DNA of 28,340 bases. Source: a virus. Lineage: Duplodnaviria; Caudoviricetes. Numbering within the stretch: the first letter of the stretch is position 1; every line of letters starts with the position of its first letter. Both the position numbers and the translations under genes were made by a program. The stretch is from the IMG/VR virus record IMGVR_UViG_3300011971_000007, positions 1 to 28,340 of that record; one strand, 5' to 3'. A model generated the notes under the pieces. That model ran no database searches. It was not told where the DNA came from and saw only the letters and a program-made list of their open reading frames with translations. Below are positions 1-21,971 of the stretch, piece after piece.

Positions 1-23
1 CACCTAGACACTTTTGGAGTATA

Positions 24-50
24 GGAAAAGCACCACTCGTCAGTGATGCT
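24..50 (-). terminator. Probable intrinsic terminator of the leftward operon
   Basis: Minus strand reads AGCATCACT-GACG-AGTGGTGCT followed by TTTCC, about 20 nt after the stop of 70..201. Confidence 0.55.
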
Positions 51-69
51 CTCTGCGCTTCCTATGCTA

Positions 70-201
70 CTACAGGTAATCCCAATTAGCTTCATCCAAA
101 CTCATGTTATACTTACCCAACACCTCTTCCAGGTCTGCCATGATCTTGTCAGCCAACTCATGTTCCACATCTTCCTCTACTGTAAACTCAAACAGCGTCA
201 T
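70..201 (-). CDS. Small acidic hypothetical protein (43 aa; not in the ORF track)
   Basis: Translates as MTLFEFTVEEDVEHELADKIMADLEEVLGKYNMSLDEANWDYL, with 13 D/E against 2 K. Its start overlaps the stop of 198..401 (ATGA). Confidence 0.7.
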   Translation of the reverse strand: MTLFEFTVEEDVEHELADKIMADLEEVLGKYNMSLDEANWDYL

Positions 202-401
202 ACCTTCCACCTATGGAATGGGTCAAACATAAACGTAATAGATGTTCGCCAATCCCAACCACTCTGCCAACTTCCATTTTGATCGTGTACTACATCTGCT
301 GATACCACCACTAACCAACCCCAAGGTACTCTAGTTCTGAACATCGAATCTGCAAGATCATGTTTAATTGGTTCGAACACAAGCTTCTTCTCTTCGTTCA
401 T
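198..401 (-). CDS. Hypothetical phage protein (67 aa)
   Basis: GGGAGG RBS upstream and ATGA overlaps at both ends. Confidence 0.75.
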   Translation of the reverse strand: MNEEKKLVFEPIKHDLADSMFRTRVPWGWLVVVSADVVHDQNGSWQSGWDWRTSITFMFDPFHRWKV

Positions 402-574
402 TTTGACAACCTCCCATATGACTTCAATACTTCCTTACTAAGGGCTATTACATCAAAACCTGTTAAGCCTCTCTTTACCTGGCTTCCTCTATATAGCAGC
501 CATTTACCATCCTCTAGATAGTGCAACCAACCTGCTTCATAGAGGATATCAAAGGCTTTCGCTAGAGCTATCAT
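398..574 (-). CDS. Hypothetical protein (58 aa; not in the ORF track)
   Basis: Translates as MIALAKAFDILYEAGWLHYLEDGKWLLYRGSQVKRGLTGFDVIALSKEVLKSYGRLSK. It has a GGGAGG RBS and ATGA overlaps with both neighbours. Confidence 0.75.
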   Translation of the reverse strand: MIALAKAFDILYEAGWLHYLEDGKWLLYRGSQVKRGLTGFDVIALSKEVLKSYGRLSK

Positions 575-801
575 CCTGGTAACCTCCCATGTGGCTTTCT
601 GCCTACATTCAAACTGATTGCCAATGTAGATTCACTGTCCACTGTCCTCCAACCGTGGGATGAGCCTAACATCATCATCTTCCCAGAGTTTTTACTAGGC
701 TCACCATCAGGATCAATCTTGATGCTGATAGTAAGGATATGAGACTTGGAGTGGTATACTACTGTCATATCATCCTTACGATCCATAGCCTGTTCTAACA
801 T
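571..801 (-). CDS. Hypothetical phage protein (76 aa)
   Basis: GAGGAG RBS and coupling to both neighbours. Likely beta-rich (LTISIKID..PSKNSGK..LGSSHG..ISLNV). Confidence 0.7.
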   Translation of the reverse strand: MLEQAMDRKDDMTVVYHSKSHILTISIKIDPDGEPSKNSGKMMMLGSSHGWRTVDSESTLAISLNVGRKPHGRLPG

Positions 802-1151
802 TGCTGCATCTCCTCTTCTTCCACTTCTACTTGGGTCATGATCACTTTAGTTATGGCATTTAGTACATTCTCTAATCCAACAGGGTTGGTCATTATCACT
901 TCCACTCGATCTAACCAATCATTCAGCCAATCCTCAGTAGCATCGAACAGCCCCTCATCCTTATCGCGATCACCATTAACACAGTACATGGAATCTTCAA
1001 ACGGCCAACATACTGCAAACTCTGGAAAGGACATCTTCATCCCAGCAGTGAGTTTAAGATCATAGAACCTTTTTAGCATTTCAGGCAACTGTTCATTGAG
1101 GTGTAAGATAGCTTGAGGTTTCAGAGCATTGATCTGTTCCTTAGTTAGCAT
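795..1151 (-). CDS. Hypothetical acidic protein (118 aa)
   Basis: AAGGAGG RBS, located within the tightly packed minus-strand operon. Confidence 0.8.
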   Translation of the reverse strand: MLTKEQINALKPQAILHLNEQLPEMLKRFYDLKLTAGMKMSFPEFAVCWPFEDSMYCVNGDRDKDEGLFDATEDWLNDWLDRVEVIMTNPVGLENVLNAITKVIMTQVEVEEEEMQQC

Positions 1152-1252
1152 GAGAGGTACCTCCTTGTGTCTTTAGTCAATGGCACGGTCTTTCTGATAT
1201 ATGCTAAGGATAGGTAGCATTCATGCAACTTAGCAATGAACTTGATTCTCAT
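1145..1252 (-). CDS. Small hypothetical protein (35 aa; not in the ORF track)
   Basis: Translates as MRIKFIAKLHECYLSLAYIRKTVPLTKDTRRYLSC. It has a very strong AAGGAGGAGG RBS and fills the gap between neighbours. Confidence 0.6.
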   Translation of the reverse strand: MRIKFIAKLHECYLSLAYIRKTVPLTKDTRRYLSC

Positions 1253-1278
1253 AGTTTATTCCTCCTCCTTCTATATAG

Positions 1279-1593
1279 TTAGCAAGCGTGCGATTCAGTC
1301 TCATCCTCAAGTCGTTCTGCCCAACTACGAATCAGTGGTCTCAGTGTTCGTTTACTGTAGGTCATTGGTCTTAAGCAGGTAGGGCATAATGGTTTACGAT
1401 CACGACTAAAGGTTTGCAGCATTGTCTGCCTAGCCCAGGTTCCACATTGACACTCATAAGTAGGGGTGGTTACATAAGTAATCATCTTCTTAGGAAGATC
1501 AGGGCGATTGCCCTTACCTTCCACTGAGAACCGTTCACCAATGAAACTGATCTTTTTAGGGATTATCTCTAACGCTTGCTTTGCCATCTTCAA
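1279..1593 (-). CDS. Putative zinc-ribbon protein
   Basis: YECQCG...PLCPTC motif (CxC plus CxxC) and a GAGGAGGAG RBS. Confidence 0.7.
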   Translation of the reverse strand: MKMAKQALEIIPKKISFIGERFSVEGKGNRPDLPKKMITYVTTPTYECQCGTWARQTMLQTFSRDRKPLCPTCLRPMTYSKRTLRPLIRSWAERLEDETESHAC

Positions 1594-1612
1594 TCTCTCC
1601 TCCTCTTACGTT

Positions 1613-2203
1613 CTATTTAATCAGTGCATCGATCTGTTCATCAGTCACATTTCCATACTGTTCAAGGTCTGCCTCCAAGTCACCATCCAGATCCTTAGGA
1701 GTAGTATCCAAAGCATCTACCTCTATCCATTTGACTGCTTCTATCCATTTGACTGCTTCTACACGTTTACTCCTGAGCACTTTGACCATTTTCCGTTCCT
1801 CTGGTCTGATCCAGTACTTATGTGTTCCCAACCATAACTTTATGGCTTCTGAAGGAGTTTCTGCAACGATCCATTCATCCCGATCCCTAAGATAGTCTTG
1901 ATCTGCGAAGTCAGGATAGTGAACGCCTACACGATACTGGTACACACGATCTTTTTCAAGTTCCTGCATACACTTCAATGATATCTGGATGCGATCTAGA
2001 ACTCCTTCCAGCTGTCTTTCTAGCATCTCGAAGTTGTTCAGGTGATACATTTCGTTGTCTGAGATATTACCTTGAGTTTCCTGGTTTTGCCCTTCTATAT
2101 GTTTAGCTAGCCTAACGTCACTTCTTAGGTTCTCTAAAGTTTCCTTAGCTCCCACAAGCATCTGGTAGTTCCATATATCATCAGTTCTAATCATTGTTAG
2201 CAC
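1613..2203 (-). CDS. Hypothetical protein (helical N-terminus, acidic C-terminus)
   Basis: Long ORF within the operon with an AAGGAG RBS. The true start may be a few codons in. Confidence 0.8.
   Translation of the reverse strand: MLTMIRTDDIWNYQMLVGAKETLENLRSDVRLAKHIEGQNQETQGNISDNEMYHLNNFEMLERQLEGVLDRIQISLKCMQELEKDRVYQYRVGVHYPDFADQDYLRDRDEWIVAETPSEAIKLWLGTHKYWIRPEERKMVKVLRSKRVEAVKWIEAVKWIEVDALDTTPKDLDGDLEADLEQYGNVTDEQIDALIK
1722..1757. repeat. In-frame 18-bp tandem duplication
   Basis: TCTATCCATTTGACTGCT x2, encoding AVKWIE twice in 1613..2203. Confidence 0.9.
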
Positions 2204-2369
2204 GCTCCTTCGTTTGTTTGATCTTCCAAGCAGTATATTCGTACTGCACAGCTTCAGAGTTACACTTAGTACAATTACATCCTTGCCAATCGCATGGTCT
2301 GTTGCCCGTCATTGGATCTGCTTTGCAAAACTTCAGGTCTAGGTAGGTTTCCCAGTTGATCATTGTCAT
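2187..2369 (-). CDS. Small Cys-rich protein (possible metal binding)
   Basis: FCKADPMTGNRPCDWQGCNCTKC, with an AGGAGG RBS. Confidence 0.7.
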   Translation of the reverse strand: MTMINWETYLDLKFCKADPMTGNRPCDWQGCNCTKCNSEAVQYEYTAWKIKQTKERANND

Positions 2370-2463
2370 TACTTGAGACCCTCCTTGCTGCTACCCTATC
2401 CATAGCTACTACAAGTCTGGCTTTAGCAGCCAAGTCCACACGTTTGCGGCCAGTGATCGTCAT
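2275..2463 (-). CDS. Hypothetical basic protein (3' end uncertain)
   Basis: AAGGAGG RBS and ATGA coupling to 2460..2771, but it overlaps the next gene by 95 nt. Confidence 0.4.
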   Translation of the reverse strand: MTITGRKRVDLAAKARLVVAMDRVAARRVSSNDNDQLGNLPRPEVLQSRSNDGQQTMRLARM

Positions 2464-2771
2464 ACTGTACCCTCCTTACGTTTCTTGTGTGCCTTAACAA
2501 CTGAGTATACAAAGGAGTAATCTAGTCCAAGTTCCTTCTTGATCTCTGCAACGGTCTGACCCTGATCAAACAACTCGCGAATCTGTCCAGAGGTCGAATT
2601 GGCACGTACCGTAGTTGTCTTATCATTGGTAGCACCACGATGTCTTTGGACAACTCCATAGACAAACGAGTAATTGGAATTCAGTTCTTTTGCAATTTCT
2701 GCAACCGTTTTGCCCTCATCAGTTAGTTGACGAATGATTGAGGACTTACTGTTGGGTTGTATATTAGCCAT
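2460..2771 (-). CDS. Tandem helix-turn-helix protein, paralogue 1 (two modules)
   Basis: SKSSIIRQLTDEGKTVAEIAKELNSNYSFVYGVV and STSGQIRELFDQGQTVAEIKKELGLDYSFVYSVV, matching the GxT-xxEIAKEL tri-helical HTH pattern. Confidence 0.85.
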   Translation of the reverse strand: MANIQPNSKSSIIRQLTDEGKTVAEIAKELNSNYSFVYGVVQRHRGATNDKTTTVRANSTSGQIRELFDQGQTVAEIKKELGLDYSFVYSVVKAHKKRKEGTV

Positions 2772-3005
2772 TTAGTTCATCATCCCTTCTTTGTACTGCT
2801 CAATTGTCATTGCTCCCTCATCTTCGTTCGTAACCCAAGGTTGTTCCTCTGGATCAGATGGAACAGTAATGTACGAACCATCGAGTAGCGAGTATATATG
2901 GTCTACACCATTTAGTTCGTACTCTTCAACAAGTTCTGCTAGGCCTAGATCACGTACTAGTTCATCAGCCTGTTCCATTGTTCTGCCCTTAGTAGGGTTG
3001 GTCAT
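2772..3005 (-). CDS. Small acidic hypothetical protein (77 aa), first gene of the leftward operon
   Basis: GGAGGTG RBS; 18 D/E against 4 K/R. Confidence 0.8.
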   Translation of the reverse strand: MTNPTKGRTMEQADELVRDLGLAELVEEYELNGVDHIYSLLDGSYITVPSDPEEQPWVTNEDEGAMTIEQYKEGMMN

Positions 3006-3073
3006 ATTAACACCTCCATAATTTATAGGTCAATCTACCTGTCCTTACCTAACCTATAATTGACCTTATATAT

Positions 3074-3102
3074 AGTATACTATATTCCCACCCATTTGAC
3101 AA
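3074..3102 (-). promoter_or_regulatory. SigmaA-type promoter P1
   Basis: TTGTCA-N17-TATACT on the minus strand. The -10 lies in the palindrome ATATAGTATACTATAT. Segment 3061-3127 is a close copy of about 3866-3934. Confidence 0.8.
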
Positions 3103-3144
3103 CGGGTAAAAGAGACCAACTTTATTCCATGCCGATTGTACCTC

Positions 3145-3410
3145 GTTTTATAGGCCACCAGGCATTGTCGTATCCCGAAGTTTTATAGGTGTGCATCGAA
3201 GTATAAACCTACGTAGTTTTATGGGTGTCCAGATAGTCTGGAGGACACCAGGAGCACGTGCTGAGTGGCCAGTTGGCTCGAAAAGTCCGCTTCGCTAGCT
3301 GGACCTCAAACACTTCTAGCCGACCAGGACACGACTCCCTGGTGTCCTCTAAATCAACTAAGGTCCTCTAAATTAACCAGTATCCTCGGAATTAACTGGT
3401 GTCCTATTTA
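3145..3410. repeat. Repeat block A1: GTTTTATAGG and GGTGTCC/GGACACC motifs, a 12-bp inverted repeat and a 19-bp degenerate tandem
   Basis: GTTTTATAGG at 3145 and 3180, with a variant at 3216. GAGGACACCAGG (3241-3252) is inverted against 3338-3349. RTCCTC..AATYAAC units start at 3344, 3363 and 3382, with a partial unit at 3401. Confidence 0.85.
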
Positions 3411-3414
3411 TTAA

Positions 3415-3445
3415 TAAAAGGAAAGACCAGTCAATGCTGGTCTCC
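3415..3445 (-). terminator. Intrinsic terminator after HTH paralogue 2
   Basis: Minus strand reads AGACCAG-CATTGA-CTGGTCT then TTCCTTTT. Confidence 0.7.
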
Positions 3446-3455
3446 AAAGTAAGTT

Positions 3456-3818
3456 CTATTCTTTTGCAAGTGATATTGGAGCTGTGATAACTACTACTGG
3501 TTTAGTTGCTGCTGCTGGTTCAGATTGTCTATATTTCTCAACAACTGTCCATACATACGAGTAGTTACTATTCAGTTCCTTACTGATCTCCCCAATAGTC
3601 TTACCTGTATCCCACATTGATCTAATCAGCTCTGACTTGCCACCCTTAGCAGATGCAACCATTGGAGTACCAGTTTTGTCAGACTCCTTCTTAACAACTC
3701 CGTACACGAAGGAATAATTACAGTTCATCTCTTTAGCAATCTGGGCGACAGTACAACCCTCGTGGTACATTTCACGAATAGTGGAAGACTTAGAAGTAGC
3801 AGTGTTGTTAGCAGTCAT
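3456..3818 (-). CDS. Tandem HTH protein, paralogue 2 (two modules)
   Basis: SKSSTIREMYHEGCTVAQIAKEMNCNYSFVYGVV and GKSELIRSMWDTGKTIGEISKELNSNYSYVWTVV, with a GGGAGG RBS. Confidence 0.88.
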   Translation of the reverse strand: MTANNTATSKSSTIREMYHEGCTVAQIAKEMNCNYSFVYGVVKKESDKTGTPMVASAKGGKSELIRSMWDTGKTIGEISKELNSNYSYVWTVVEKYRQSEPAAATKPVVVITAPISLAKE

Positions 3819-3878
3819 TAGAATGACCTCCCATTAGTTGTAGTAGTGCAGATATCTCTTATATCTGACCCTATATAT

Positions 3879-3907
3879 AGTATACTATATTCCATATCAA
3901 ATGACAA
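3879..3907 (-). promoter_or_regulatory. SigmaA-type promoter P2
   Basis: TTGTCA-N17-TATACT on the minus strand, a near-duplicate of P1. Confidence 0.8.
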
Positions 3908-4054
3908 CGGGCAAAAAGGACTAACTTTTAATTCACTACTGCACTATTCCGTTTGGGCCTAGGACACCACGAACTGGTCTTGTGGTCACTTAGACAGTTT
4001 GAACTTCCGAACGTCTTTTCCAGATATTGGAAAAATTGTCAGATATTTGAAGTT

Positions 4055-4088
4055 TTGCCTATTATTTCCAATTAAAATATAGTATAAT
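4055..4088 (+). promoter_or_regulatory. Probable promoter P3 (divergent from P2)
   Basis: TTGCCT-N17-TATAGT, with an overlapping ATATAG-TATAAT. An 8-bp hairpin TATAAGGA/TCCTTATA follows at 4094-4116. Confidence 0.6.
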
Positions 4089-4142
4089 AAGGGTATAAGG
4101 AGAGAAAGTCCTTATAAAGTATAGAAAAGGGAGTTGTTGAAC

Positions 4143-4763
4143 ATGCAAACTATTCAAAGTGCAACTCAACTTGAGCTTGACAGAATTGTAGATGAGATAG
4201 CAAGTTTATGGAAGATGAATTATGTGGTTTGTGCTGGAATTATTAGAGAGTACTTAGTTAAAGCTGGAGTAGTAAAGGCTACAGATGATGAGAAGGTCGC
4301 AGTGACCCTAATTCCTAGCCCAGTCCTTACAATGCCTGATCTCACAGTCCCTACTGCACAAGAAGTGGTAGAGGAAACCATAGTATTATCTACATCACCT
4401 ATATCCACGGGAGTATCAGAAAAGTTTATGGAGGCTATTACTGCAGCAGTTGAGTTTGTATTACCTATCCCAGAGTTAGTAGAAGAACAAGTAGCAGTAG
4501 CAGTGGAAGTAGCACCAGTTGAGGATCCAAGACCATGCATACCTAATGTGCCTCTTCCTGCTGATCCTACTGAGAAAACCACAAAGTCTGAAATTATCAG
4601 ACAAATGTTCGATCAGGGTATATCAGTGGGCAAGATAAGTAGAGATCTGAAGAGTAACTACAGTTATGTATGGGCTGTTGTGGACACTTATAAAGCTGTT
4701 CTTGCGCGACAAAAGGCAGAAAGTGCTGAAGCTACTGTGAAAGGAGATGCTTCAGGATGCTAA
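4143..4763 (+). CDS. HTH paralogue 3: helical N-terminus, acidic V/E/P-rich linker, single C-terminal HTH module
   Basis: The AAGGGAG RBS favours ATG 4143. The C-terminal TKSEIIRQMFDQGISVGKISRDLKSNYSYVWAVV matches the family. Confidence 0.82.
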   Translation: MQTIQSATQLELDRIVDEIASLWKMNYVVCAGIIREYLVKAGVVKATDDEKVAVTLIPSPVLTMPDLTVPTAQEVVEETIVLSTSPISTGVSEKFMEAITAAVEFVLPIPELVEEQVAVAVEVAPVEDPRPCIPNVPLPADPTEKTTKSEIIRQMFDQGISVGKISRDLKSNYSYVWAVVDTYKAVLARQKAESAEATVKGDASGC

Positions 4764-4867
4764 AGAAGGTAGGTATTGTAGTAGGTTGTGTCCTACTAAT
4801 AGTAGCAACATTATTCATAGTTATTGTGATGTCTAAGATCATAGGTGCTGTATGGGCAGTTAAATAA
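4757..4867 (+). CDS. Small membrane peptide (36 aa; not in the ORF track)
   Basis: Translates as MLKKVGIVVGCVLLIVATLFIVIVMSKIIGAVWAVK. AAGGAG RBS at 4741; overlaps the upstream stop. Confidence 0.65.
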   Translation: MLKKVGIVVGCVLLIVATLFIVIVMSKIIGAVWAVK

Positions 4868-4881
4868 GCTACCAAAGGGTG

Positions 4882-4900
4882 GAGCTGCAGAGCAGCTCTT
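4882..4900 (+). terminator. Hairpin, possible terminator
   Basis: GAGCTGC-AGA-GCAGCTC with only a weak T-tract. Confidence 0.45.
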
Positions 4901-4906
4901 ATCCTA

Positions 4907-4990
4907 TGTCGTTTTATAGGTGTCCCAGCGTAGTTGGGTCGGATGCGAACGTTTTAAGGTGTCCATCATTAGTCCCGAGGACACCAGGGC
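4907..4990. repeat. Repeat block A2
   Basis: GTTTTATAGGTGTCC at 4911, GTTTTAAGGTGTCC at 4951 and GAGGACACCAGG at 4977. It aligns with 3216-3252. Confidence 0.85.
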
Positions 4991-5051
4991 TACGTACGCT
5001 GGTGGTTAATAAGACCGTTAAACCCTTAGAACCGAGTTCTAGACCACTCTG

Positions 5052-5080
5052 TTGACATTCCTTCCAAAATGTAGTATGAT
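5052..5080 (+). promoter_or_regulatory. SigmaA-type promoter P4
   Basis: TTGACA-N17-TATGAT, with ATGTAG before the -10 as in P6 and P7. Confidence 0.85.
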
Positions 5081-5106
5081 TAGGATAGTAATAAGAAAGG
5101 AAGTGT

Positions 5107-5493
5107 ATGGACATGAGTTTCATTGAAAGACCAACTTCTATTTGTGAAGGTACAGTTTTGGAGATCAGGATAGCCTACGATGAGTATGGAATTGTGGGGA
5201 TACAACAAGCACCTCTAGATGACAAGGAATTTGATACTAAGCAGGCTATTATGGTGTTGGAAGCAGCATTATCAGTGCTGAAGGCAGATCAGGTTATTGA
5301 GAGACCAGACTACTATGTATACTTCAATCCAAGGTCTAGAGAGGTAGAAGTAGGGTCAATCATAGGTATGCCTTCATTCAAACTATCTGAGGATGACACG
5401 CTAGTGGATGTCTGCAGACTATCTAATAGAGAACTAAAAGAATGGGTAAGAACAGAACATTTAGCTTTACTGCAGCAGCATGGTTTAGTCTAA
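5107..5493 (+). CDS. Hypothetical acidic protein (128 aa)
   Basis: Has its own promoter, an AAAGGA RBS and a downstream hairpin. Confidence 0.8.
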   Translation: MDMSFIERPTSICEGTVLEIRIAYDEYGIVGIQQAPLDDKEFDTKQAIMVLEAALSVLKADQVIERPDYYVYFNPRSREVEVGSIIGMPSFKLSEDDTLVDVCRLSNRELKEWVRTEHLALLQQHGLV

Positions 5494-5501
5494 CTCCTAG
5501 G

Positions 5502-5521
5502 AGGGCCACAAGAGTGGCTCT
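5502..5521 (+). terminator. Hairpin, possible terminator
   Basis: AGGGCCAC-AAGA-GTGGCTCT just after the stop, with no clear T-tract. Confidence 0.4.
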
Positions 5522-5526
5522 ACCTG

Positions 5527-5650
5527 TGTCGTTTTATAGGTGTCCTATGCCACTCCTGGTGTGCATCGGTCGTTTTATAGCACACCATGAACGTTTTATA
5601 GGTGGGCATCCATGTAACTATGGACACCACGCAACACCGGTGCACACCAC
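5527..5650. repeat. Repeat block A3
   Basis: GTTTTATAGG at 5531 and 5593, with a variant at 5572. Inverted pair TGGTGTGC (5557) / GCACACCA (5580). GGACACC at 5621. Confidence 0.85.
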
Positions 5651-5651
5651 T

Positions 5652-5723
5652 TGGCGACGATGTCAGAATATTCTGAATATTGCAAATATTGCGAATATTT
5701 GGAATATTCCCACACCGTCGCCA
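5652..5723. repeat. 9-bp-period AATATT array 1 (5 units) inside an 8-bp inverted repeat
   Basis: cagaatatt ctgaatatt gcaaatatt gcgaatatt tggaatatt (5664-5708), flanked by TGGCGACG and CGTCGCCA. Confidence 0.92.
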
Positions 5724-5809
5724 TGGAGTTTAGTTGCTTAAACTGTTAACTGATTGGGAATTCTCAAAAGTCAACAGTTCTACAATAGTAAATTGCTATG
5801 ACAAAACTG

Positions 5810-5838
5810 TTTACTTCCTGAACGATGTATAGTATACT
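5810..5838 (+). promoter_or_regulatory. SigmaA-type promoter P5
   Basis: TTTACT-N17-TATACT, with TATAG before the -10. Confidence 0.7.
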
Positions 5839-5899
5839 TAGAGAGTCAGGAGTTAGTAATTAGTAGTTAGTAAATAAAGTAAAGAAAGAAGTTGAAGTT

Positions 5900-6184
5900 A
5901 TGAGTAAATCACAACAAATGAGAGATCTTCATGATTCAGGTTTAACTATTGCAGAAATTGCCAAACAAATGAACTGTAATTATTCGTTCTGTTATGGAAT
6001 CATACAGAAACATACTTCTAAGTTAGGATTAGAAATGAACAAAACTGTAAAAGGCAGTAAATCAACAACAATTAGAACAATGTATGATAATGGTTCAACT
6101 ATTGGAGATATAGCCAAAGAGTTAAATACAAACTACTCATATGTTTGGACTGTTGTAGAAAAACATAGAACTACTGTAGAGTAA
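5900..6184 (+). CDS. Tandem HTH protein, paralogue 4 (two modules)
   Basis: SKSQQMRDLHDSGLTIAEIAKQMNCNYSFCYGII and SKSTTIRTMYDNGSTIGDIAKELNTNYSYVWTVV. About 84% identical to 6955..7233 by manual alignment. Confidence 0.88.
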   Translation: MSKSQQMRDLHDSGLTIAEIAKQMNCNYSFCYGIIQKHTSKLGLEMNKTVKGSKSTTIRTMYDNGSTIGDIAKELNTNYSYVWTVVEKHRTTVE

Positions 6185-6209
6185 ATGTAAAGAATCAATC
6201 TTGACAAGT

Positions 6210-6243
6210 AGTAAGTTGTAGTTAGAAATAGCTACAACTTACT
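6210..6243 (+). terminator. Long hairpin, probable terminator
   Basis: AGTAAGTTGTAGTTA-GAAA-TAGCTACAACTTACT. Confidence 0.6.
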
Positions 6244-6288
6244 TCTAACTTCTAACAAAGACTTAATCCAAATAAGTACTACTTCTAA

Positions 6289-6342
6289 CTGAATATTCTG
6301 AATATTGCAAATATTCTAATTATTGTGAATATTCTGAATATT
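6289..6342. repeat. 9-bp-period AATATT array 2 (6 units)
   Basis: ctgaatatt ctgaatatt gcaaatatt ctaattatt gtgaatatt ctgaatatt. Confidence 0.92.
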
Positions 6343-6400
6343 CCCATAGTTTAGTAGTTTGTGAGTTTAGCAGTTTAGTCTACTAAACTTGGCGGAGGAA

Positions 6401-6454
6401 GGAACAATTCTGAATATTCTGAATATTCTGACTATTTGGAATATTCTGATAATT
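6401..6454. repeat. 9-bp-period AATATT array 3 (6 units)
   Basis: ggaacaatt ctgaatatt ctgaatatt ctgactatt tggaatatt ctgataatt. Confidence 0.9.
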
Positions 6455-6567
6455 CGCGCCTACGGAACTTTAGTTGCTTAACTGTTTAGCAGTTTAGTCG
6501 ACGAAAGCGAAAACCTAGCCGTCCCGCCGCTTAGCAGTCAAACAGGTTCCTGAAAATAAATACTTTG

Positions 6568-6596
6568 TTGACTTATCTCTCAGGATGTAGTATTAT
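6568..6596 (+). promoter_or_regulatory. SigmaA-type promoter P6
   Basis: TTGACT-N17-TATTAT. It shares GATGTAGTATTATATAGATAGGGA exactly with P7. Confidence 0.85.
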
Positions 6597-6630
6597 ATAG
6601 ATAGGGAAGAAATGAGAAGGAGTGATTGAG

Positions 6631-6774
6631 ATGTTGGAAACAGTACTTGATTATGGACTAGACTATGGTTGGTTGGTGTTGGGATTCTACACAGTGACTA
6701 AGGTCACAGGTCTAGTTAGACACTACATCCTACATAGAAGTCTAGATCGTAAGGCTACAAGATCAATAGGCTAG
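6631..6774 (+). CDS. Small protein with a hydrophobic segment (47 aa; not in the ORF track)
   Basis: Translates as MLETVLDYGLDYGWLVLGFYTVTKVTGLVRHYILHRSLDRKATRSIG. It has an AAGGAG RBS, its own promoter and its own terminator. Confidence 0.75.
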   Translation: MLETVLDYGLDYGWLVLGFYTVTKVTGLVRHYILHRSLDRKATRSIG

Positions 6775-6798
6775 GTCACGAAAGTGACCTTTCCCTTT
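6773..6798 (+). terminator. Intrinsic terminator
   Basis: AGGTCAC-GAAA-GTGACCT followed by TTCCCTTT. Confidence 0.75.
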
Positions 6799-6865
6799 AT
6801 CTTATTCCCCCGTCTAGGAAGACCTTCGGCGAAGTATTCTCATCTTTGGTAGTCAAAAGAAAGTG

Positions 6866-6894
6866 TTGACTTTCTTCCTGAGATGTAGTATTAT
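6866..6894 (+). promoter_or_regulatory. SigmaA-type promoter P7
   Basis: TTGACT-N17-TATTAT, a duplicate of P6. Confidence 0.85.
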
Positions 6895-6954
6895 ATAGAT
6901 AGGGAGAGGGAGTGAATACCACTTACCTACTCACCTAATGAAGGAGTGTTGTAT

Positions 6955-7233
6955 ATGAGTAAGTCACAACAGATGAGAGACCTACACGATCAAGGGATGA
7001 CTATTGCTGAGATAGCTAAGGAGATGAATGCTAACTATAGCTTCTGCTATGGAATCATTCAGAAGTACACAGCTAAGTCAGGACAGGAGATGCATAAGAC
7101 AATCAAGGGTGGAAAGAGTACTACAATAAGACAGATGTATGATGAAGGCAGGACTATAGGTGATATAGCTAAAGAACTCAACACCAACTACAGTTACGTT
7201 TGGACAGTAGTAGAGAAACATAGAACAGTATAG
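6955..7233 (+). CDS. Tandem HTH protein, paralogue 5 (two modules)
   Basis: AAGGAG at 6941 and the paralogue alignment both favour ATG 6955. Same two modules as paralogue 4. Confidence 0.88.
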   Translation: MSKSQQMRDLHDQGMTIAEIAKEMNANYSFCYGIIQKYTAKSGQEMHKTIKGGKSTTIRQMYDEGRTIGDIAKELNTNYSYVWTVVEKHRTV

Positions 7234-7239
7234 GTTGAA

Positions 7240-7274
7240 GGAAAGATGATGATTGCAAGATCATCTTTCCCTTT
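7240..7274 (+). terminator. Intrinsic terminator
   Basis: GGAAAGATGAT-N9-ATCATCTTTCC followed by CTTT. Confidence 0.75.
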
Positions 7275-7370
7275 GTCTGCCTCTTGAAATAATTCTTTGT
7301 TACTCCTTCGTTTCTACTTGCCTTAATTCCTAATAAAGCATGAGGGCATGCATTTGAGAAGGGGTGCGTG

Positions 7371-7457
7371 CGTTACCGAAACACACAAAATTGGAGTTTA
7401 TAGGATTCGCTAACACGTTACTGCAGTACACAAAATTAGAGTTTCTGGGATTCCTAA
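7371..7457. repeat. Degenerate direct repeat with 45-bp period upstream of the packaging genes
   Basis: CGTTACcgaaacACACAAAATTgGAGTTTatagGATTC at 7371 against CGTTACtgcagtACACAAAATTaGAGTTTctggGATTC at 7416. Confidence 0.8.
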
Positions 7458-7641
7458 ACCCTCCTAAACGTGACCGCGCGAAAATTCACACATATAGTTT
7501 GTAAAGTCGTTGGGCAAGTTTGCTCCACCTTAGGCAAGCTTGATATATTTTGACGACATCCAGAATACCTGTTGTCCATCGTCGAGGAAAGTTGTATACT
7601 AAGAGCAAGGAATATGTTTCGAAGGCATGGAGGTGATGCAC

Positions 7642-8616
7642 ATGACCACCAATAAGATAAGTCAGGTCCAGAGTCCAACCATCAAGGATCAGAGCGTAGC
7701 AGTACCTCTGCAATTATGGGATGAGACAAAGGTAAAGCTTACTTCTGAGGATAAAATGTGCTTAAGTGCCAATGTAGTCATGCTGCAAGAAACATTAGCT
7801 CGGACACCAAGTGGTTTGCCTGCTCAGTTAGTTGATCCAGAAGCAATTCTAAATAGCAGCCAAATCCAACAAGAAGGTACGCTACTCGGCGAGGTAACAG
7901 TGCTTCCAGACAATGGAACGATTTTCATCAGCTATGCAGAAGGATTCGGTACAGTAGATGGAGTACCATTGTGGGAACGGCTACCAAAAGAGACAGTTGA
8001 TGCGTACAAATTATACCTACATTACCGCGATCAAAAAGAGCACACCGGAAATAGATCCTTTCAAGCAGTAGGGAAGCAGTATGGTGTAAACTTACTGACT
8101 ATTGTCACTCTGTCAAACATGTACCACTGGATGGATCGGAACCTTGTGTTTGATAGCTTTCGAGAAGTGCTGGATGACATCCGTAGAGAGCGTGATGTAC
8201 GGGAAATGTCCAGTAGACACATACGAGCGGCAAGGGATATCTTCAAGGTCTGCACTAATTTTATTGCTGACCCAGACAATGTTAAAAGCCTAACGCATAA
8301 GACAGCTCTAAGCTGGGCTGAGTTAGCTGTTAACCTAGAGCGTTTAAGCCTTGGTCTCCACCCTGATAAGCCAGGATGGGCTAACGGCATGCCTACATCA
8401 GCACAAGCTCCTATGATTCAGATCAACCATAATTCGAACAACCACCAGAATAACAATGTTTCAGGTAATGGTAAGAGTGATGAGTTGAGCCAAATGACTG
8501 ATGTGCTGAAGATTCTAGCTAGTAGTGGTGCTCTAGGTAGACTCAAACCGGAAGAAGCAGAAATAGTCGAAGCTGAAATCAGTGGCGAAATAGTACCTAT
8601 AAAGCCACTTCAGTAA
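7642..8616 (+). CDS. Putative terminase small subunit / DNA-binding protein
   Basis: Lies upstream of TerL. PLWERLPKET..AYKLYLHYRD...RSFQAVGKQYG...YHWMDR resembles HTH-like proteins commonly found before TerL. The GGAGGTG RBS favours ATG 7642. Confidence 0.6.
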   Translation: MTTNKISQVQSPTIKDQSVAVPLQLWDETKVKLTSEDKMCLSANVVMLQETLARTPSGLPAQLVDPEAILNSSQIQQEGTLLGEVTVLPDNGTIFISYAEGFGTVDGVPLWERLPKETVDAYKLYLHYRDQKEHTGNRSFQAVGKQYGVNLLTIVTLSNMYHWMDRNLVFDSFREVLDDIRRERDVREMSSRHIRAARDIFKVCTNFIADPDNVKSLTHKTALSWAELAVNLERLSLGLHPDKPGWANGMPTSAQAPMIQINHNSNNHQNNNVSGNGKSDELSQMTDVLKILASSGALGRLKPEEAEIVEAEISGEIVPIKPLQ

Positions 8617-8669
8617 AAGCAAGTAAAAGCGAAGGTAAAAGCAAAGGTAAAAGCAAAGGTAAAAGCGAG
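8613..8669. repeat. Five tandem GTAAAAGC units (10-12 bp period)
   Basis: gtaaaagcaa gtaaaagcgaag gtaaaagcaaag gtaaaagcaaag gtaaaagcgag. Confidence 0.92.
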
Positions 8670-8680
8670 GTAAGGTTAAT

Positions 8681-8953
8681 TTGAGTAGCTGCAAAGATTT
8701 CGAAGCTAGGCCAATACCTAAGGCTGTTAAGGATAGCCTCTTTGCTTCCACAGACGTCGTAAATTGTGGTAACTGCATTACTTGGATAGTAGCTTTGGAG
8801 AAGTGTGAAAATCACGATCGATACTGTAAGGAAGGCACCACAGTGATGCCAGCATTAACAAAGAAAGGTGGAATGAAGACATGGCTGAAAGCACTGCAAC
8901 TACTGAAAAGCCTGTACAGCTCCAGCACGACTCATTCCACCTCACTAACTTAA
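8681..8953 (+). CDS. Small Cys-rich protein (3' end uncertain)
   Basis: GAGGT RBS, TTG start and an NCGNC..W..C..H..C pattern. It overlaps terL by 73 nt. Confidence 0.45.
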   Translation: MSSCKDFEARPIPKAVKDSLFASTDVVNCGNCITWIVALEKCENHDRYCKEGTTVMPALTKKGGMKTWLKALQLLKSLYSSSTTHSTSLT

Positions 8954-10284
8954 ACACTCTCGAATTAGCTCAGCTGCAGCAGCTGCTGACACCTAAGATG
9001 AATAAATACTCGCCTCATACGCCTACGGCAAAACAAGCTGCATTCTTATTGGTAAACAGTAAAGAGGTTTTCTTCGGAGGTGCAGCAGGAGGCGGGAAGA
9101 GTGATGCGTTGCTAATGGCAGCTCTACAGTATGTGGAAGAGCCAAGTTATGCTGCGATCCTTTTCCGCAAAACTTACGCTGACTTAGCCCTACCTGGGGC
9201 TTTGATGGATAGAGCGAAAGAGTGGTTGCTCCCTCACCCTGAAGTTAGGTGGAATGAGAAAGATAAGACGTTCACCTTCCCAAGCGGAGCGACACTCACT
9301 CTAGGATACTTGGAGAATGACAATGATAAGTACCGCTACCAAAGTAGTGAGTTTCAGTTTATAGGGTTCGATGAGCTTACGCAAATAGTCAAAAGCTGCT
9401 ACACATACATGTTTAGTAGGCTACGCCGGTTGCTAAGTTCAAATGTCCCGCTCCGCGTCCGAAGCGCCAGTAATCCTGGTGGGGCTGGTCATGATTGGGT
9501 ACATCAAAGGTTCCTGATCGAAGGGCCAGCTAAGAAAAGAATCTTTATCCCTGCCACTTCCCGAGATAACCCATACTTGGACAATGAGTCTTATATGGAG
9601 AGTCTTGCTGAGTTAGATCCAATCACAAGAGCTCAGCTACAAGAAGGTGACTGGAATGTAAAGCATGGTGGTTCCCTTTTTGATAGATCCTGGTTTAAGG
9701 TAGTCGATCACGTCCCTGAAGGCACGAGAAAACTGCGATATTGGGATTTAGCTGCTACTGAACCAAAACCAGGAAAAGATCCTGACTACACTGTGGGCCT
9801 TAAGCTGGAAGAACTAGATGGAATCTACTACATCTCAGATGTACGTAGAGGACGGAAGTCACCAGGTGAGGTTGAGAAACTAGTTAAACAAACAGCAGAT
9901 ATTGATGGTTATGAAACTCGGATCTACATGGAGGAAGAACCTGGTAGCTCGGGTAAGAATAATACGTACAATTATGGGAAGATACTAACAGGATACGCTT
10001 TCTGGGGTAATAGAGAAACAGGAGCAAAGCACTTACGTGCTGCGCCAGCAAGCTCAGCAGCAGAAAGAGGCCTAATTTGCATCGTCCGAGGGGTATGGAA
10101 CACAGAGTTCTTGGATGAGCTCGAAGCTTACCCAAATGTTAACCATGATGACCAGTTAGATGGACTTAGCGGAGCCTATCGTATGCTTACCAGTAAGGCC
10201 AACTTTGCAGCAATTCCTATTGGAATTAACTCAATTAGTGGCAGTTACTGGCGAGGCAGAGATGATGGAAGTGAGACTGGTTAA
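8881..10284 (+). CDS. terL: Terminase large subunit
   Basis: Walker A GGAAGGGKS, Walker B FIGFDELTQ, coupling motif ASNPGG, and nuclease motifs YWDLAA, DYT and HDDQLD. Confidence 0.96.
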   Translation: MAESTATTEKPVQLQHDSFHLTNLNTLELAQLQQLLTPKMNKYSPHTPTAKQAAFLLVNSKEVFFGGAAGGGKSDALLMAALQYVEEPSYAAILFRKTYADLALPGALMDRAKEWLLPHPEVRWNEKDKTFTFPSGATLTLGYLENDNDKYRYQSSEFQFIGFDELTQIVKSCYTYMFSRLRRLLSSNVPLRVRSASNPGGAGHDWVHQRFLIEGPAKKRIFIPATSRDNPYLDNESYMESLAELDPITRAQLQEGDWNVKHGGSLFDRSWFKVVDHVPEGTRKLRYWDLAATEPKPGKDPDYTVGLKLEELDGIYYISDVRRGRKSPGEVEKLVKQTADIDGYETRIYMEEEPGSSGKNNTYNYGKILTGYAFWGNRETGAKHLRAAPASSAAERGLICIVRGVWNTEFLDELEAYPNVNHDDQLDGLSGAYRMLTSKANFAAIPIGINSISGSYWRGRDDGSETG

Positions 10285-10317
10285 GACTTAAGTTAAGCGA
10301 GAGGAGGTGAACCACAC

Positions 10318-11789
10318 TTGAAGATACCTTTTATGAACAGTACTCCTGTAGTTGAAACTCCAATCGCTGTCGACACTAATGTAACAAATGCACCTATGGG
10401 AGAAATTGGGATACCAGGACTAACTCGCTTCGTGTAACTTAGTTATGGAAGACTTTATCCCTACCCTGCGGTGGCCCAGAGCCGGTAAGATTTATCAAGA
10501 GATGGCACTTAACGATCCAGTTATCGGTGCGATTGTGTTTACAGCAGAGATGCTAATTCGCAAAGCTAGTTGGACAATTGAGCCAGGAGGTAAAACTCCA
10601 GTTGATCTGGAAGCTGCTCAATTCTTGCAAGAGTGCATGGATGATATGAGTGTTTCTTGGATTGACACCATTACGGAGATTCTATCACTGATTGTATATG
10701 GCTGGTCTTTCCATGAAATCGTGTACAAAACTAGAGGTGGAAACGTTAGAGATCCCTCTAGACACAGCTTGTATGATGACAATCGAATAGGCTGGAGAAA
10801 GATAGCTGGTAGATCTCAGCTCAGTATGCGAGGTTGGGAATTTGATGAGACCGATGGTGGTACAGTGGCTATGATTCAAATGGCCTTATCGGACACCAAG
10901 GTTCGTATAATTCCTCTCGAGAAAGCATTGCTGTTTCGCACCGAAGATTGAGAATGCCAATCCTGAAGGTAAGTCAATTCTCCGCAACGCTTACCGCCCA
11001 TGGTACTTCAAGAAGCACATCGAGGAAATTGAAGGTATTGGAATAGAGCGGGATTTGGCTGGATTACCAGTCATTACAGTACCTGATGGCATTGATATAT
11101 GGGGCACAAATGACCCACGTATGCTTGCTATTAAGACTGCAGCAGAAACCTTAGTTAGAAGTGTACGGCGGGACCAAAATGAGGGTATAGTTCTTCCGTT
11201 TGGCTGGGAATTTAAGCTTACCACTACTGGTGGTAGTCGTCAGTTTGATACTAGTGCCATCATCAACAGGTATGATCAACGTATTGCTATCACTTTGTTA
11301 GCAGACATCGTTATGTTGGGTGCAGACAAGGTAGGTAGTTTTGCTCTTGCAGATGTTAAAAAAGGCTTGTTAGCTACAGCACTAGAAGCAATACTAGAAT
11401 CCATAGCTGGAGTGTTTAACCGTCACGCAGTTCCTAGATTGTTTAGTTACAACTCTTTTCCAGGATTGCTTAAGTACCCTAAGCTGATCTCAGGAGAGGT
11501 AGAAACACCAGATCTTAATGAATTGGGTAACTTCATTCAGAAGCTCGCAGGAGCTAAGATGCCACTGTTCCCAGATGAGGACCTTGAGAATTATCTTCGT
11601 TCGACTGCTAGTATGCCTAAGAAGACAGACAAATCACCTAAGACTGCTGAAGAGGCGACTCCGCAGGCGACTAAGAACGCAGGAAAGAACTTCAACTTTG
11701 GTAGCAGTAACCCTAGTGCGCCTGACCCTAATGCACCAGACCCTAATATTCCTAATGACCCTAAGAAGGGCACTAACAATAGGAGGTGA
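10318..11789 (+). CDS. Portal protein (DUF935/Mu gp29-like), split by two apparent +1 insertions
   Basis: GGAGGTG RBS with TTG at 10318. Removing one base near 10433 and one near 10943 gives a continuous ...GEIGIPGLTRFGNLVMEDFIPTLRW...LFRTKIENANPEGKSILRNAYRPWYFK...ERDLAGLP. Confidence 0.88.
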
Positions 11790-11793
11790 AATA

Positions 11794-13161
11794 ATGCCAA
11801 ATAGTACTGAATTCTGGAGTATGAAGGCTAATAAAACAAAAGGTGTTGGCGAGATTTATCTTCATGGTCAAATAGCTAGTGCTCAATCATGGTTCAGTGA
11901 TGCCATTACTCCTAAGAAATTTAAACAGCAGCTGGATGCTTTAGGTGACGTAGAAACGCTAGATGTGTACATCAATAGTGGTGGTGGAGAGGTATTTGCA
12001 GGTCAAGCCATATATAGTATGCTGAAACGTCACCCAGCTCACGTAAATGCACATATTGATGGTTTAGCTGCATCTATGGCATCGGTTATAGCAATGGCTG
12101 CAGATACAGTGTATATGCCTGCTAATGCAATGATGATGATCCATAATCCTTGGTCCAGGGCTCAAGGAGATGCAAAGTCATTCCGTAAAGCTGCTGACAC
12201 ACTAGACAAAGTAGCTGAAACTTGTATTTCAGCCTACATGGACAAGTGTGGATTGCCTAAGGATGAGATTGTTGCCATCATGGACGCTGAAAGTTGGTAC
12301 ACTGCAGCAGAAGCAAAAGCATTAGGTTTTGCCGATGTTATTACAAATGCTGTAGATATTGCAGCTTCCATTGAGGATGGTATGTTTAACTTCAGTGGTC
12401 AAGCAATGCCACTGGATAAGATGCTTAATGTTAAGCAGCTGCTAGCTAAGCTACCTAACGCTACCACACTAGCGCATAGGATAGATAATACGCCAAAGAA
12501 GGAGGAGAATAAACTCATGGATTTCAAAGAAGTACTCGCAAGTTTACCTCAAGATCATCAGGATATCGTAAGTGCTGTAATTGCAGCAAGTGACACCAAA
12601 ATTGCTGAGGTACAAGCAGCCTTAGATGAGACTATTGCTAAGCTTGATGCATCGCAGATCGCTCTGGCAGCTGCTACTCCTGTTGCAGCTTTGTCTGATG
12701 AAGCATTTCTTGCTAGCCTGCCCGAAGAGGTGAGAGCACGTTATGTAGCTGATCAAGCAACTGCAAAAGCAGCATTAGTTGCAGCACAGACCATCCAAGC
12801 TGCTGCTAAACTTGGCTCCTTTGTGGCAAAAGCTAAGACCTTTGACCGAATTCCAGTAAAAGCTGAAGATTTCGGAAAAGTATTGATGGCTGTATCTGAT
12901 GCCGTTCCCGAAGCATTTGCACAAATTGAATCTGTATTAGGTGCAGTGAATGCAGCTATGCAATCAAGTGATCTTTTTAAGTCGCTAGGCTCAACTAGCC
13001 CTGCTAGTGCTGGTGGATCGTCCTTAGATGTTATGAATGAGCGAGCAGAAGCTCTTGCTAAGCAAGAAAACTGCACAAAAGAACAAGCCTTTCTGAAAGT
13101 GTGCAAAGCCGATCCAGAATTGTATAATGCATACCAGAGAGAGCTAAAAGGGGAGGAATAA
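11794..13161 (+). CDS. ClpP-type prohead protease fused to an Ala-rich scaffold domain
   Basis: YINSGGGEVFAG, DGLAASMAS (catalytic Ser), MMIHNPW (His) and ESWYTA.EA motifs. The AGGAGGTG RBS sets ATG 11794. Confidence 0.92.
   Translation: MPNSTEFWSMKANKTKGVGEIYLHGQIASAQSWFSDAITPKKFKQQLDALGDVETLDVYINSGGGEVFAGQAIYSMLKRHPAHVNAHIDGLAASMASVIAMAADTVYMPANAMMMIHNPWSRAQGDAKSFRKAADTLDKVAETCISAYMDKCGLPKDEIVAIMDAESWYTAAEAKALGFADVITNAVDIAASIEDGMFNFSGQAMPLDKMLNVKQLLAKLPNATTLAHRIDNTPKKEENKLMDFKEVLASLPQDHQDIVSAVIAASDTKIAEVQAALDETIAKLDASQIALAAATPVAALSDEAFLASLPEEVRARYVADQATAKAALVAAQTIQAAAKLGSFVAKAKTFDRIPVKAEDFGKVLMAVSDAVPEAFAQIESVLGAVNAAMQSSDLFKSLGSTSPASAGGSSLDVMNERAEALAKQENCTKEQAFLKVCKADPELYNAYQRELKGEE
12517..13161 (+). 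CDS. Probable nested in-frame scaffolding protein
   Basis: Internal AAGGAGGAG at 12499-12507, followed by in-frame ATG 12517 at the domain boundary. Confidence 0.6.
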   Translation: MDFKEVLASLPQDHQDIVSAVIAASDTKIAEVQAALDETIAKLDASQIALAAATPVAALSDEAFLASLPEEVRARYVADQATAKAALVAAQTIQAAAKLGSFVAKAKTFDRIPVKAEDFGKVLMAVSDAVPEAFAQIESVLGAVNAAMQSSDLFKSLGSTSPASAGGSSLDVMNERAEALAKQENCTKEQAFLKVCKADPELYNAYQRELKGEE

Positions 13162-13164
13162 TCC

Positions 13165-13527
13165 ATGTACGAAATTCCTGGTTATAGAATGTCCGGAGTA
13201 GCTCAAGCAGATTTTACAAATAAGAGCGGATGTGGTGTTGTAGTAGGCACTGTAGCAGGTACCTTAGCTATTGCTGCTGCTTCATTACCCATTGATGGAG
13301 TTCTCAATATGGAGGGTACATCAGGCCAAATGGTTACAGCCGTAGTTGATGGCATTGTCATTGGACTATATGGCGGCAATGTTGTCGCTGGTGACAAACT
13401 CACAATGGATGCCTCAGGGCAGTTTATTACTGCAGTAGCCACTAATGCTATTGTCGGTAAGGCTATGGAAGCCGGAGCTACTGGTGAGAAGCATCCAGTG
13501 CTGTTGGGCTATAAGGGTCTAGCATAA
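13165..13527 (+). CDS. Capsid decoration/cement protein (DUF2190-like)
   Basis: 120 aa, Gly/Ala/Val-rich, with AGDKLTMDASG..VGKAMEAGA.GE, lying between scaffold and capsid genes. Confidence 0.7.
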   Translation: MYEIPGYRMSGVAQADFTNKSGCGVVVGTVAGTLAIAAASLPIDGVLNMEGTSGQMVTAVVDGIVIGLYGGNVVAGDKLTMDASGQFITAVATNAIVGKAMEAGATGEKHPVLLGYKGLA

Positions 13528-13558
13528 TATTAAATTAGGGTAAAGAGGAGGAACTAAG

Positions 13559-14536: not shown

Positions 14537-14883
14537 TGTATGCAGTTGTAACTAGCTTCCTCTTTGAGTGCAGACGCTTTGAGCCTGGTGATTTGTTGGA
14601 GGATTCACATGCTGCTGTAACGTATCGTTCGCAGTTTGTGAAACCTGTAACTGAAATCCCGATGGAGCAATTGGAGTCGCTTGATGCCTCTAAAGCCTTT
14701 CGAGAAATCACCAACTTGTCAGAGGTGCTGAGTGCCTCTGACGCGTCTGGGGAAGTTACAGCTACGCCAGATAAAGTAGTACCTTCGCCTACGGTAAAAA
14801 CTCCTAAGCAACCGGAAGTAATACGAGAGCCAGAACCAGACTTGGTGGCACCAGCTCCAGTTAAGGGAGCCCAGGAGGTGTAA
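14536..14883 (+). CDS. Hypothetical protein with a low-complexity P/E-rich tail
   Basis: TAATG coupling with the capsid stop; fills the gap to the next gene. Confidence 0.6.
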   Translation: MYAVVTSFLFECRRFEPGDLLEDSHAAVTYRSQFVKPVTEIPMEQLESLDASKAFREITNLSEVLSASDASGEVTATPDKVVPSPTVKTPKQPEVIREPEPDLVAPAPVKGAQEV

Positions 14884-14884
14884 T

Positions 14885-15316: not shown

Positions 15317-15324
15317 GTGTATAA

Positions 15325-16058: not shown

Positions 16059-16075
16059 GAGAGGAGGAACTTTAC

Positions 16076-16481: not shown

Positions 16482-16485
16482 AATA

Positions 16486-17373: not shown

Positions 17374-17423
17374 TTCGTTAAGCAGTCCCTCCCCTTAATA
17401 ATAACGATGAAAGGGACGATAGC

Positions 17424-17792: not shown

Positions 17793-17797
17793 ACAGT

Positions 17798-18010: not shown

Positions 18011-18024
18011 GGGAGGGATGAAAG

Positions 18025-21970: not shown

Positions 21971-21971
21971 C

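Follow-up and report, generated by a model that had tools for sequence, protein, structure and literature searches.

The virus record IMGVR_UViG_3300011971_000007 (Duplodnaviria; Caudoviricetes; 28,340 nucleotides), analysed whole and called the window here, carries at positions 2460-7270 a real, clade-wide conserved and previously undescribed control module next to the terminase genes terS and terL. The module combines an expanded family of genes for helix-turn-helix (HTH) proteins with spacers that hold two kinds of repeats: a strand-polar word, here called the B word, and AATATT arrays that resemble the binding sites of the host regulator CodY. Our tentative reading, which we rate a little short of an even chance, is that a virulent-type phage may use it as an early control region, probably at the genome end, which the HTH proteins coat and which CodY gates in some members.

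A profile of terS returned 49 loci, which collapsed with the window to 30 clusters, 20 of them close (terS score 144 or more) and the other 10 distant; a scan with a single terS protein found nothing. HTH genes lay upstream of terS in 14 of the 20 close clusters. Five of the six misses had at most 1209 bases upstream, and the sixth, L024, with 5.2 kb upstream, is a real miss (other phage records are referred to by L and G labels). Among the clusters with at least 5 kb upstream, seven of eight carried two to five HTH copies, on both strands, and the region abutted terS in every HTH-positive cluster. No HTH gene was found upstream of terS in the 10 distant clusters, nor anywhere in the five of their records that were searched whole. 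A preliminary description of the window had asked whether HTH clusters with linked repeats recur just upstream of terS/terL, which is the arrangement found in this clade.

The same description had raised the concern that the region might be an assembly chimera. Contigs of run X1, which is probably the source sample, tile all 30 bins of positions 1-12000 with no differing letters listed, no single piece spanning the region, and the window gene order recurs in independent relatives. No contigs of runs X2 and X3 were placed on the window.

Layout of the HTH cassettes

Five open reading frames (ORFs) in 2460-7270 bear an HTH module of about 38 aa, with nine modules in total, distributed over both strands as first described. 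The genes at 3456, 5900 and 6955 each stand alone in a unit with their own promoter-like site (3907 on the minus strand, 5810 and 6866 on the plus strand) and a hairpin behind, again as originally proposed. Seven promoter-like sites of sigma-A type share T-R-T-A-G ahead of the -10 box. The spacers, measured from ORF end to ORF end, span 180-450 bp and are thus present but slightly longer than the 150-400 bp first given. The three B-word blocks and three AATATT arrays attributed to them were all located, in the following order.

2460..2771, minus strand: tandem-HTH paralogue 1 (103 aa, two modules), second gene of a leftward early operon
2772..3005, minus strand: acidic ORF of 77 aa, of no family
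3074..3102, minus strand: promoter of sigma-A/70-like type; a 69-nt stretch is 81% alike to that of the promoter at 3907
3145..3250, plus strand: B block 1, three GTTTTAT(A/G)GG words and a GGTGTCC/GGACACC inverted pair; inside the leftward arm, yet on the plus strand
3342..3405, plus strand: 19-bp-period repeat containing GGTGTCC, 3.4 copies
3422..3445, minus strand: intrinsic-terminator-like hairpin closing paralogue 2
3456..3818, minus strand: tandem-HTH paralogue 2 (120 aa, two modules), alone in its cassette
3879..4083, no strand: two divergent promoters (3907 minus, 4055 plus) and, at 4034, a single CodY-like box with 3 mismatches; transcription switches and the GC skew turns here
4143..4763, plus strand: paralogue 3 (206 aa), an acidic N-terminal part of no family and one C-terminal module
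4757-4864, plus strand: hydrophobic ORF of 35 aa after paralogue 3, read from sequence
4911..4985, plus strand: B block 2
5052..5493, plus strand: promoter (11/12 matches) and ORF of 128 aa, of no family
5531..5628, plus strand: B block 3
5652..5723, no strand: CodY-type array 1 (5666-5710) in a GC-clamped inverted repeat, fold z -7.8
5728..5743, no strand: C element, a 16-bp palindrome GTTTAG-N4-YTAAAC, with a second copy at 6373-6388
5810..6243, plus strand: promoter and 12-bp hairpin (6210-6243, read from sequence) on either side of tandem-HTH paralogue 4 (5900-6184, 94 aa)
6289..6454, no strand: CodY-type arrays 2 and 3 (6289-6343 and 6407-6454), mutually inverted
6568..6800, plus strand: promoter, hydrophobic ORF of 47 aa (6631-6774) and terminator (6773-6790)
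6866..7270, plus strand: promoter and hairpin (7240-7270, read from sequence) on either side of tandem-HTH paralogue 5 (6955-7233, 92 aa), which is 84% identical to paralogue 4
7627..10284, plus strand: terS (7627-8616, phrog_6299) and terL (8881-10284, phrog_979), the fixed neighbours of the cluster

A strand-polar word in the spacers

The window spacers hold three blocks of GTTTTATAGG with GGTGTCC/GGACACC pairs. Allowing at most one mismatch, there were seven copies of GTTTTATAGG in these blocks, all on the plus strand, against one beyond position 7626, and GGTGTCC occurred 10 times in the region against twice beyond it. From the loci studied here we derived the B word pattern, GTTTTA followed by one to three A/T and then GG. 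In the 65 kb upstream of the 14 HTH-positive clusters, 60 B words lay on the terS strand and four on the opposite strand, whereas the 128 kb downstream held three copies and five control words gave 0-4 per strand. In six of eight phages (the window, L002, L026, L031, L037 and L042) the B word kept the same strand on both sides of the transcription switch; L036 had B words on just one side, and in L001 they were too few. With a stricter pattern in four long records, 20 of 24 matches were co-oriented within the region, three, from G005 and G007, were outside it or on the opposite strand, and one (G007:26985) stood at the region edge. Across the 21 clusters with at least 2 kb upstream, three or more B words were found in 8 of 11 HTH-positive and in none of 10 HTH-negative clusters (Fisher's exact test, P = 0.001).

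The B word thus appears to act as a polar signal at the DNA level and not as an RNA element, because it does not follow the transcribed strand; an RNA-level role was rejected on this ground, and Rfam returned one sub-threshold miRNA match. Strand skew was likewise discarded as the cause of the polarity: the window spacers have none, although it was seen in L036. Upstream of terS in the cultured phage RDJL Phi 1, no similar repeats of note were present. Judged by its distribution, the B word is likely a site of the phage HTH proteins; TerS and the primase are further candidate readers.

AATATT arrays match the CodY box

The CodY box is the 15-nt AATTTTCWGAAAATT; sites typically overlap by 6 nt, which gives a period of 9 bp, and up to three dimers assemble on them (PMC10415144). 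The three AATATT arrays of the window (5666-5710, 6289-6343 and 6407-6449) have this period. All 13 AATATT hexamers in 2460-7626 fell inside the arrays, and the 20.7 kb beyond held 10 scattered copies, so that neither repeat family is arrayed in the structural module, in line with the earlier observation. Scored with the Firmicute consensus, nine boxes with at most three mismatches occurred in the window, eight of them in 4034-6454 (five at two mismatches and three at three; one, at 4592, inside a gene). Pairs of boxes stood at offset 9 (eight pairs) and 18 (six pairs) and at none of the other 22 offsets between 1 and 24, and there were no pairs in the 20.7 kb downstream. In 300 simulations there were on average 0.02 boxes with at most two mismatches, and no pairs. 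Two mismatches is the minimum that a 9-periodic array can reach against the CodY box; the main repeat unit attains it, as do 72 of the 262,144 possible 9-mers (0.001 at 70% AT).

Some relatives came closer to the box. L001 and L002 carried boxes with a single mismatch, and the true CodY end, AAAATT, reappeared at the outer margin of an array in L001, L002 and L032. The order array, C palindrome, promoter, HTH gene recurred in the window, L001 and L002, and the position of the array upstream of HTH cassettes was conserved in these three and L004. The arrays were centred 133-183 bp upstream of the start sites of the HTH cassettes (-156 to -183 in the window). The C element, which follows the array in the window, L001 and L002, is a second candidate HTH site. 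It was also seen at L001:1325, at L002:4435 and 4592, and at L025:1610-1790 (up to seven repeats in L025). Tandem arrays of the 8-bp TTAACCTA type stood directly before the CodY-type arrays at L001:1145-1227 and L002:4373-4436.

A scan of viral contigs for an overlapped CodY 24-mer gave 17 stretches, against four with a C/G-swapped control. By our grouping, seven phage groups among these had dense clusters, some with perfect boxes, and only one of them, represented by L082 (the L002 phage), has the HTH family. The arrays are therefore independent of that family, since they occur in six unrelated phage groups without it. Several unrelated uncultured phages had 15-30 CodY-type boxes within a few kb, by strong promoters (L075/L081/L084/L085, L077/L088, L079/L089, L080, L086 and L087), and in L080 and L089 these adjoined a terS-like gene. 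Among cultured phages, Troll had seven CodY-type sites in 410-1107 and one more in its first 6 kb, and the stretches of B4, Bastille and SPO1 had two, three and three.

Considered as a separate claim, it is quite probable that the AATATT arrays are CodY sites, and they are probably not HTH sites. The proposal that the HTH proteins coat both repeat families therefore survives as a likely reading for the B word, which co-occurs with them, and is not supported for the arrays. The arrays share with Firmicute CodY operators (PMC10415144) boxes at one to three mismatches, the 9-bp offset, several overlapping boxes and a non-coding position upstream of sigma-A-type promoters; they differ in being predicted, on a phage genome, five or six units long, set in GC-clamped inverted repeats and 133-183 bp upstream of the start. 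Literature searches, partial in coverage, turned up no report of CodY arrays on phage genomes.

The HTH family

An AlphaFold model of paralogue 5 (mean pLDDT 92.5) has two three-helix bundles (H3-42 and H54-91) joined by a linker. The nearest solved chain was the archaeal protein Cbp2 (PDB 2LVS), with a profile E-value of 1.9e-7; it was the top fold match as well, although not a significant one (Foldseek E 0.013, TM 0.41). Cbp2 is a two-HTH protein that binds DNA repeats (PMC3597662). Cbp2 and Cbp1 (PMC3597662, PMC10883916) resemble the phage proteins in having two linked three-helix HTH modules within about 100 aa, whereas they are archaeal, single-copy and bind CRISPR repeats, and the proteins described here are phage-encoded and multi-copy; homology is not established. 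None of the 20 largest repeat families of positions 1-9000 was a CRISPR repeat-spacer array.

The family comprises at least 127 protein sequence clusters. A tblastn search of 50,697 cultured phage records gave no match, although distant relatives may be missed, an Atlas search returned generic viral HTH clusters only, and literature searches of partial coverage found no relevant report on this cluster. In a tree of 25 HTH proteins, most inner branches of which were weak, we recovered within-genome pairs (support 99/96 for W4/W5 and 100/97 for the L036 pair) and one older leftward group, in which paralogue 1 joined the leftward copies of L002 and L026 (91/93). Each long genome also had a larger paralogue (about 240-400 aa, two or three modules) outside the cluster (L016:12556-13272, in G002; G005:25198; G007:18967; G009:24079-24663; G006:52553-53248), that of G002 having three modules.

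Kinship to T5 D5 was rejected: despite a phrog_323 match at E 2e-7, the hhalign probability was 4.4% over 22 columns. The larger paralogue of G002 adjoins the ligase gene, where T5 has D5, for which the homology test failed.

Phage, lifestyle and host

The right 20 kb of the window is a siphovirus-like structural module with terS, terL, head protease, major head and major tail genes. The best cultured matches were at 50% for terL (psiM2) and 47% for the capsid (RDJL Phi 1), and the relatives are uncultured phages with genomes of about 57-65 kb. G001 and G002 (65 ORFs annotated) encode DNA polymerase, primase, helicase, ligase, ribonucleotide reductase and Que genes. Their replication regions contain QueD-like and QueE-like genes, with a GTP cyclohydrolase gene in G001, and the Que-type genes suggest 7-deazaguanine DNA modification in these two phages.

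We infer that these are phages of virulent type with spore-forming Firmicute hosts. None of five long relatives, four of them at least 90% complete, had a tyrosine integrase (PF00589) or serine recombinase (PF07508), which agrees with the earlier view that the region is no standard lysogeny switch, and a search of genome contigs for prophage copies gave one 14-residue match. A gene for an alpha/beta small acid-soluble spore protein (SASP) lies directly upstream of terS at L028:1062-1463, L035:9116-9514 and L036:9119-9517 (Pfam E 7e-12 in L028 and 1e-13 in L036); spore-forming Firmicute hosts are likely because this gene precedes terS in L028 and L036. A centromere, one of the functions first suggested, is disfavoured: ParA-type ATPases (PF13614) were absent from all five long relatives, ParM and TubZ types not having been searched, and no parS was found in the window.

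Elsewhere in the window, the portal, tape-measure and one tail gene looked split by stops or frameshifts (10270-11789, 18025-21422 and 21790-22356). Near 18408 a contig from run X1 has a one-base difference, which makes an assembly error the likely cause of at least that break. A repeat-rich tail protein of 900 aa (25090-27792) had no PHROG match, and a 12-bp tandem repeat of about five copies (8613-8673) lies between terS and a Cys-rich ORF of 90 aa.

Evidence on the genome end

Run X1 contig depths were 13.7, 15.6, 12.4 and 13.8 over 9-6223, then 9.6 for the contig at 6541-8836, while the pieces listed further right had about 7-8.3 (about 8 beyond 8859), a step of about 1.7-fold with an edge near 7.1 kb if the 6541-8836 contig is mixed; these values come from the contigs of one run, in which a related phage at depth 6 was present, and contig depth is not copy number. 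As a weak hint, the step would suit either a long terminal repeat or a pac step immediately before terS. The records of cultured phages related by terL carried no annotation of their genome ends. Contigs ended within 3.3 kb upstream of terS in 12 of the 15 listed records, a count that is confounded by viral-contig selection and repeats and was not used. Two 38-nt repeats (7371-7453), close to where the depth edge is estimated, separate the last HTH hairpin from the promoter of terS.

In the T5 terminal repeat, three untranslated regions of repeats are conserved and include DnaA boxes (10.1101/866236), and the analogy drawn earlier with the T5 repeat regions fits the layout of the module. Like the T5 regions with injection-stop signal (iss) repeats and the SPO1 terminal-repeat early regions, it has small genes on both strands, strong promoters for the host polymerase and untranslated spacers rich in repeats. 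Unlike them, it has no DnaA boxes (no consensus box was found in window positions 1-20000), terminal redundancy is only hinted at, and neither the T5 nor the SPO1 region carries this HTH family. The ORFs of the region had no PHROG match to T5 A1/A2, which were not searched directly.

Proposed mechanism and alternative explanations

If the module is an HTH-coated early control region, host sigma-A polymerase would transcribe the HTH genes on phage entry. The HTH proteins could then load as monomers on the B words between the cassettes, two unlike modules being suited to a non-palindromic word, and the coat would damp or time the strong early promoters and perhaps shield the genome end. In array-bearing members, CodY oligomers on the arrays may add a nutrient input. 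Cbp1 coats CRISPR arrays and controls their transcription (PMC10883916). A stronger form of this proposal, in which Cbp-like phage chromatin on the first-injected end is gated by host CodY, seems to us rather unlikely.

Several results weigh against a coated and CodY-gated region. The co-occurrence of B words and HTH genes is not independent evidence, the pattern coming from the same loci and 9 of the 10 HTH-negative clusters being distant phages; it fits TerS or primase equally well, and 3 of the 11 HTH-positive clusters with at least 2 kb upstream have no B cluster. A regulatory coat does not in itself require one-strand polarity, and helical phasing of the B words was rejected, as their spacings gave P of about 0.12 once duplicates had been removed. 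Of the 14 HTH-positive clusters only five have CodY pairs, and in the complete genome G002 a single CodY box was counted over 60 kb, with no arrays. Activator-type helical phasing between CodY box and promoter looked strong in three unrelated phages, but in a larger set (121 loci giving 73 unique contexts, 28 of them with a promoter) it disappeared (P = 0.62). For the terminus the evidence is the contig depth of a single run, and different assemblies of one phage stop at different positions.

Instead, TerS or the packaging or ejection machinery might read the B words as oriented signals for packaging or for the terminus, with the HTH proteins as ordinary early regulators that bind, for example, the C palindrome. 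The B words keep one orientation with respect to terS whichever way the genes run, the region always abuts terS where HTH genes are present, depth drops from about 13.7 to about 8 with its edge near 7.1 kb, and conserved untranslated repeats are known from the T5 terminal repeat (10.1101/866236). However, L024 has a close terS with neither HTH genes nor B words in its 5.2 kb upstream or its 17-kb record (one fragment), and B words are spread over 3-5 kb and not around a single cut site, so we regard this explanation as fairly unlikely. Co-oriented direct repeats would also suit a replication origin in which B words are iterons for the HTH proteins or a primase-helicase and the AT-rich arrays aid opening; divergent strong promoters and a skew turn lie at about 4 kb, and in L026, L031 and L037 the distance between terS and the primase gene is 5-7 kb. 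An iteron origin is expected to have one tight, phased cluster of co-oriented repeats, whereas the B words, although co-oriented, are dispersed over several spacers and unphased. The region has no DnaA box, the skew turn follows coding-strand bias and is absent from the window spacers, and the arrays are better explained as CodY sites; an origin is improbable.

It is also conceivable that cassettes are shuffled in a hypervariable early region and that the repeats and paralogues arose as a side effect, in which case one HTH gene matters and copy number does not. The module resembles the promoter early stem-loop (PeSL) cassettes of T4-like phages, for which recombination has been described, in its repeated units of strong promoter and stem-loop between small variable ORFs (PMC2839356); paralogues often cluster by genome (the W4/W5 and L036 pairs), and one run X1 contig has the 6864-6906 promoter with other flanks. 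It differs in its extra strand-polar word independent of gene direction and in its cargo, a conserved family of paralogous regulators. Cassettes flip without the B word changing strand, unlike PeSL units, which go with transcription, and the B word and the array-C-promoter order are kept between phages at about 58% TerL identity, which implies selection; we give shuffling only a small chance. For the CodY-type arrays, a role mainly as a sponge that titrates host CodY and derepresses host nutrient-scavenging genes, instead of as promoter operators, would agree with their length (five or six units), their distance from promoters (-156 to -183 in the window) and the 15-30 boxes per few kb of other phages. 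With only eight boxes at three or fewer mismatches in the window region and a conserved array position upstream of HTH cassettes (window, L001, L002 and L004), it is very unlikely.

Relation to other phages and implications

Sites for host regulators are known on virulent phages, namely Spo0A sites on phi29 and CtrA sites in 'lytic deferment' (PMC9437464, a paper in which the word CodY does not occur). As in those cases, an integrase-less phage here carries clustered predicted sites for a sensor of host state near early or terminal genes of unknown function; the difference is that the regulator would be CodY and that the phage couples these sites to its own expanded HTH family and to another word, a polar one.

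The finding defines a clade-wide control region made of an HTH family without a cultured member and a conserved polar DNA word, and it adds a further phage lineage with apparent CodY operators. If CodY binds the arrays, virulent Firmicute phages could read the nutrient state of the host directly, as phi29 does with Spo0A. If Cbp-like chromatin with a CodY gate also proved true, a virulent phage of spore-formers would hold or release its lytic programme according to the amino-acid and GTP state of its host.

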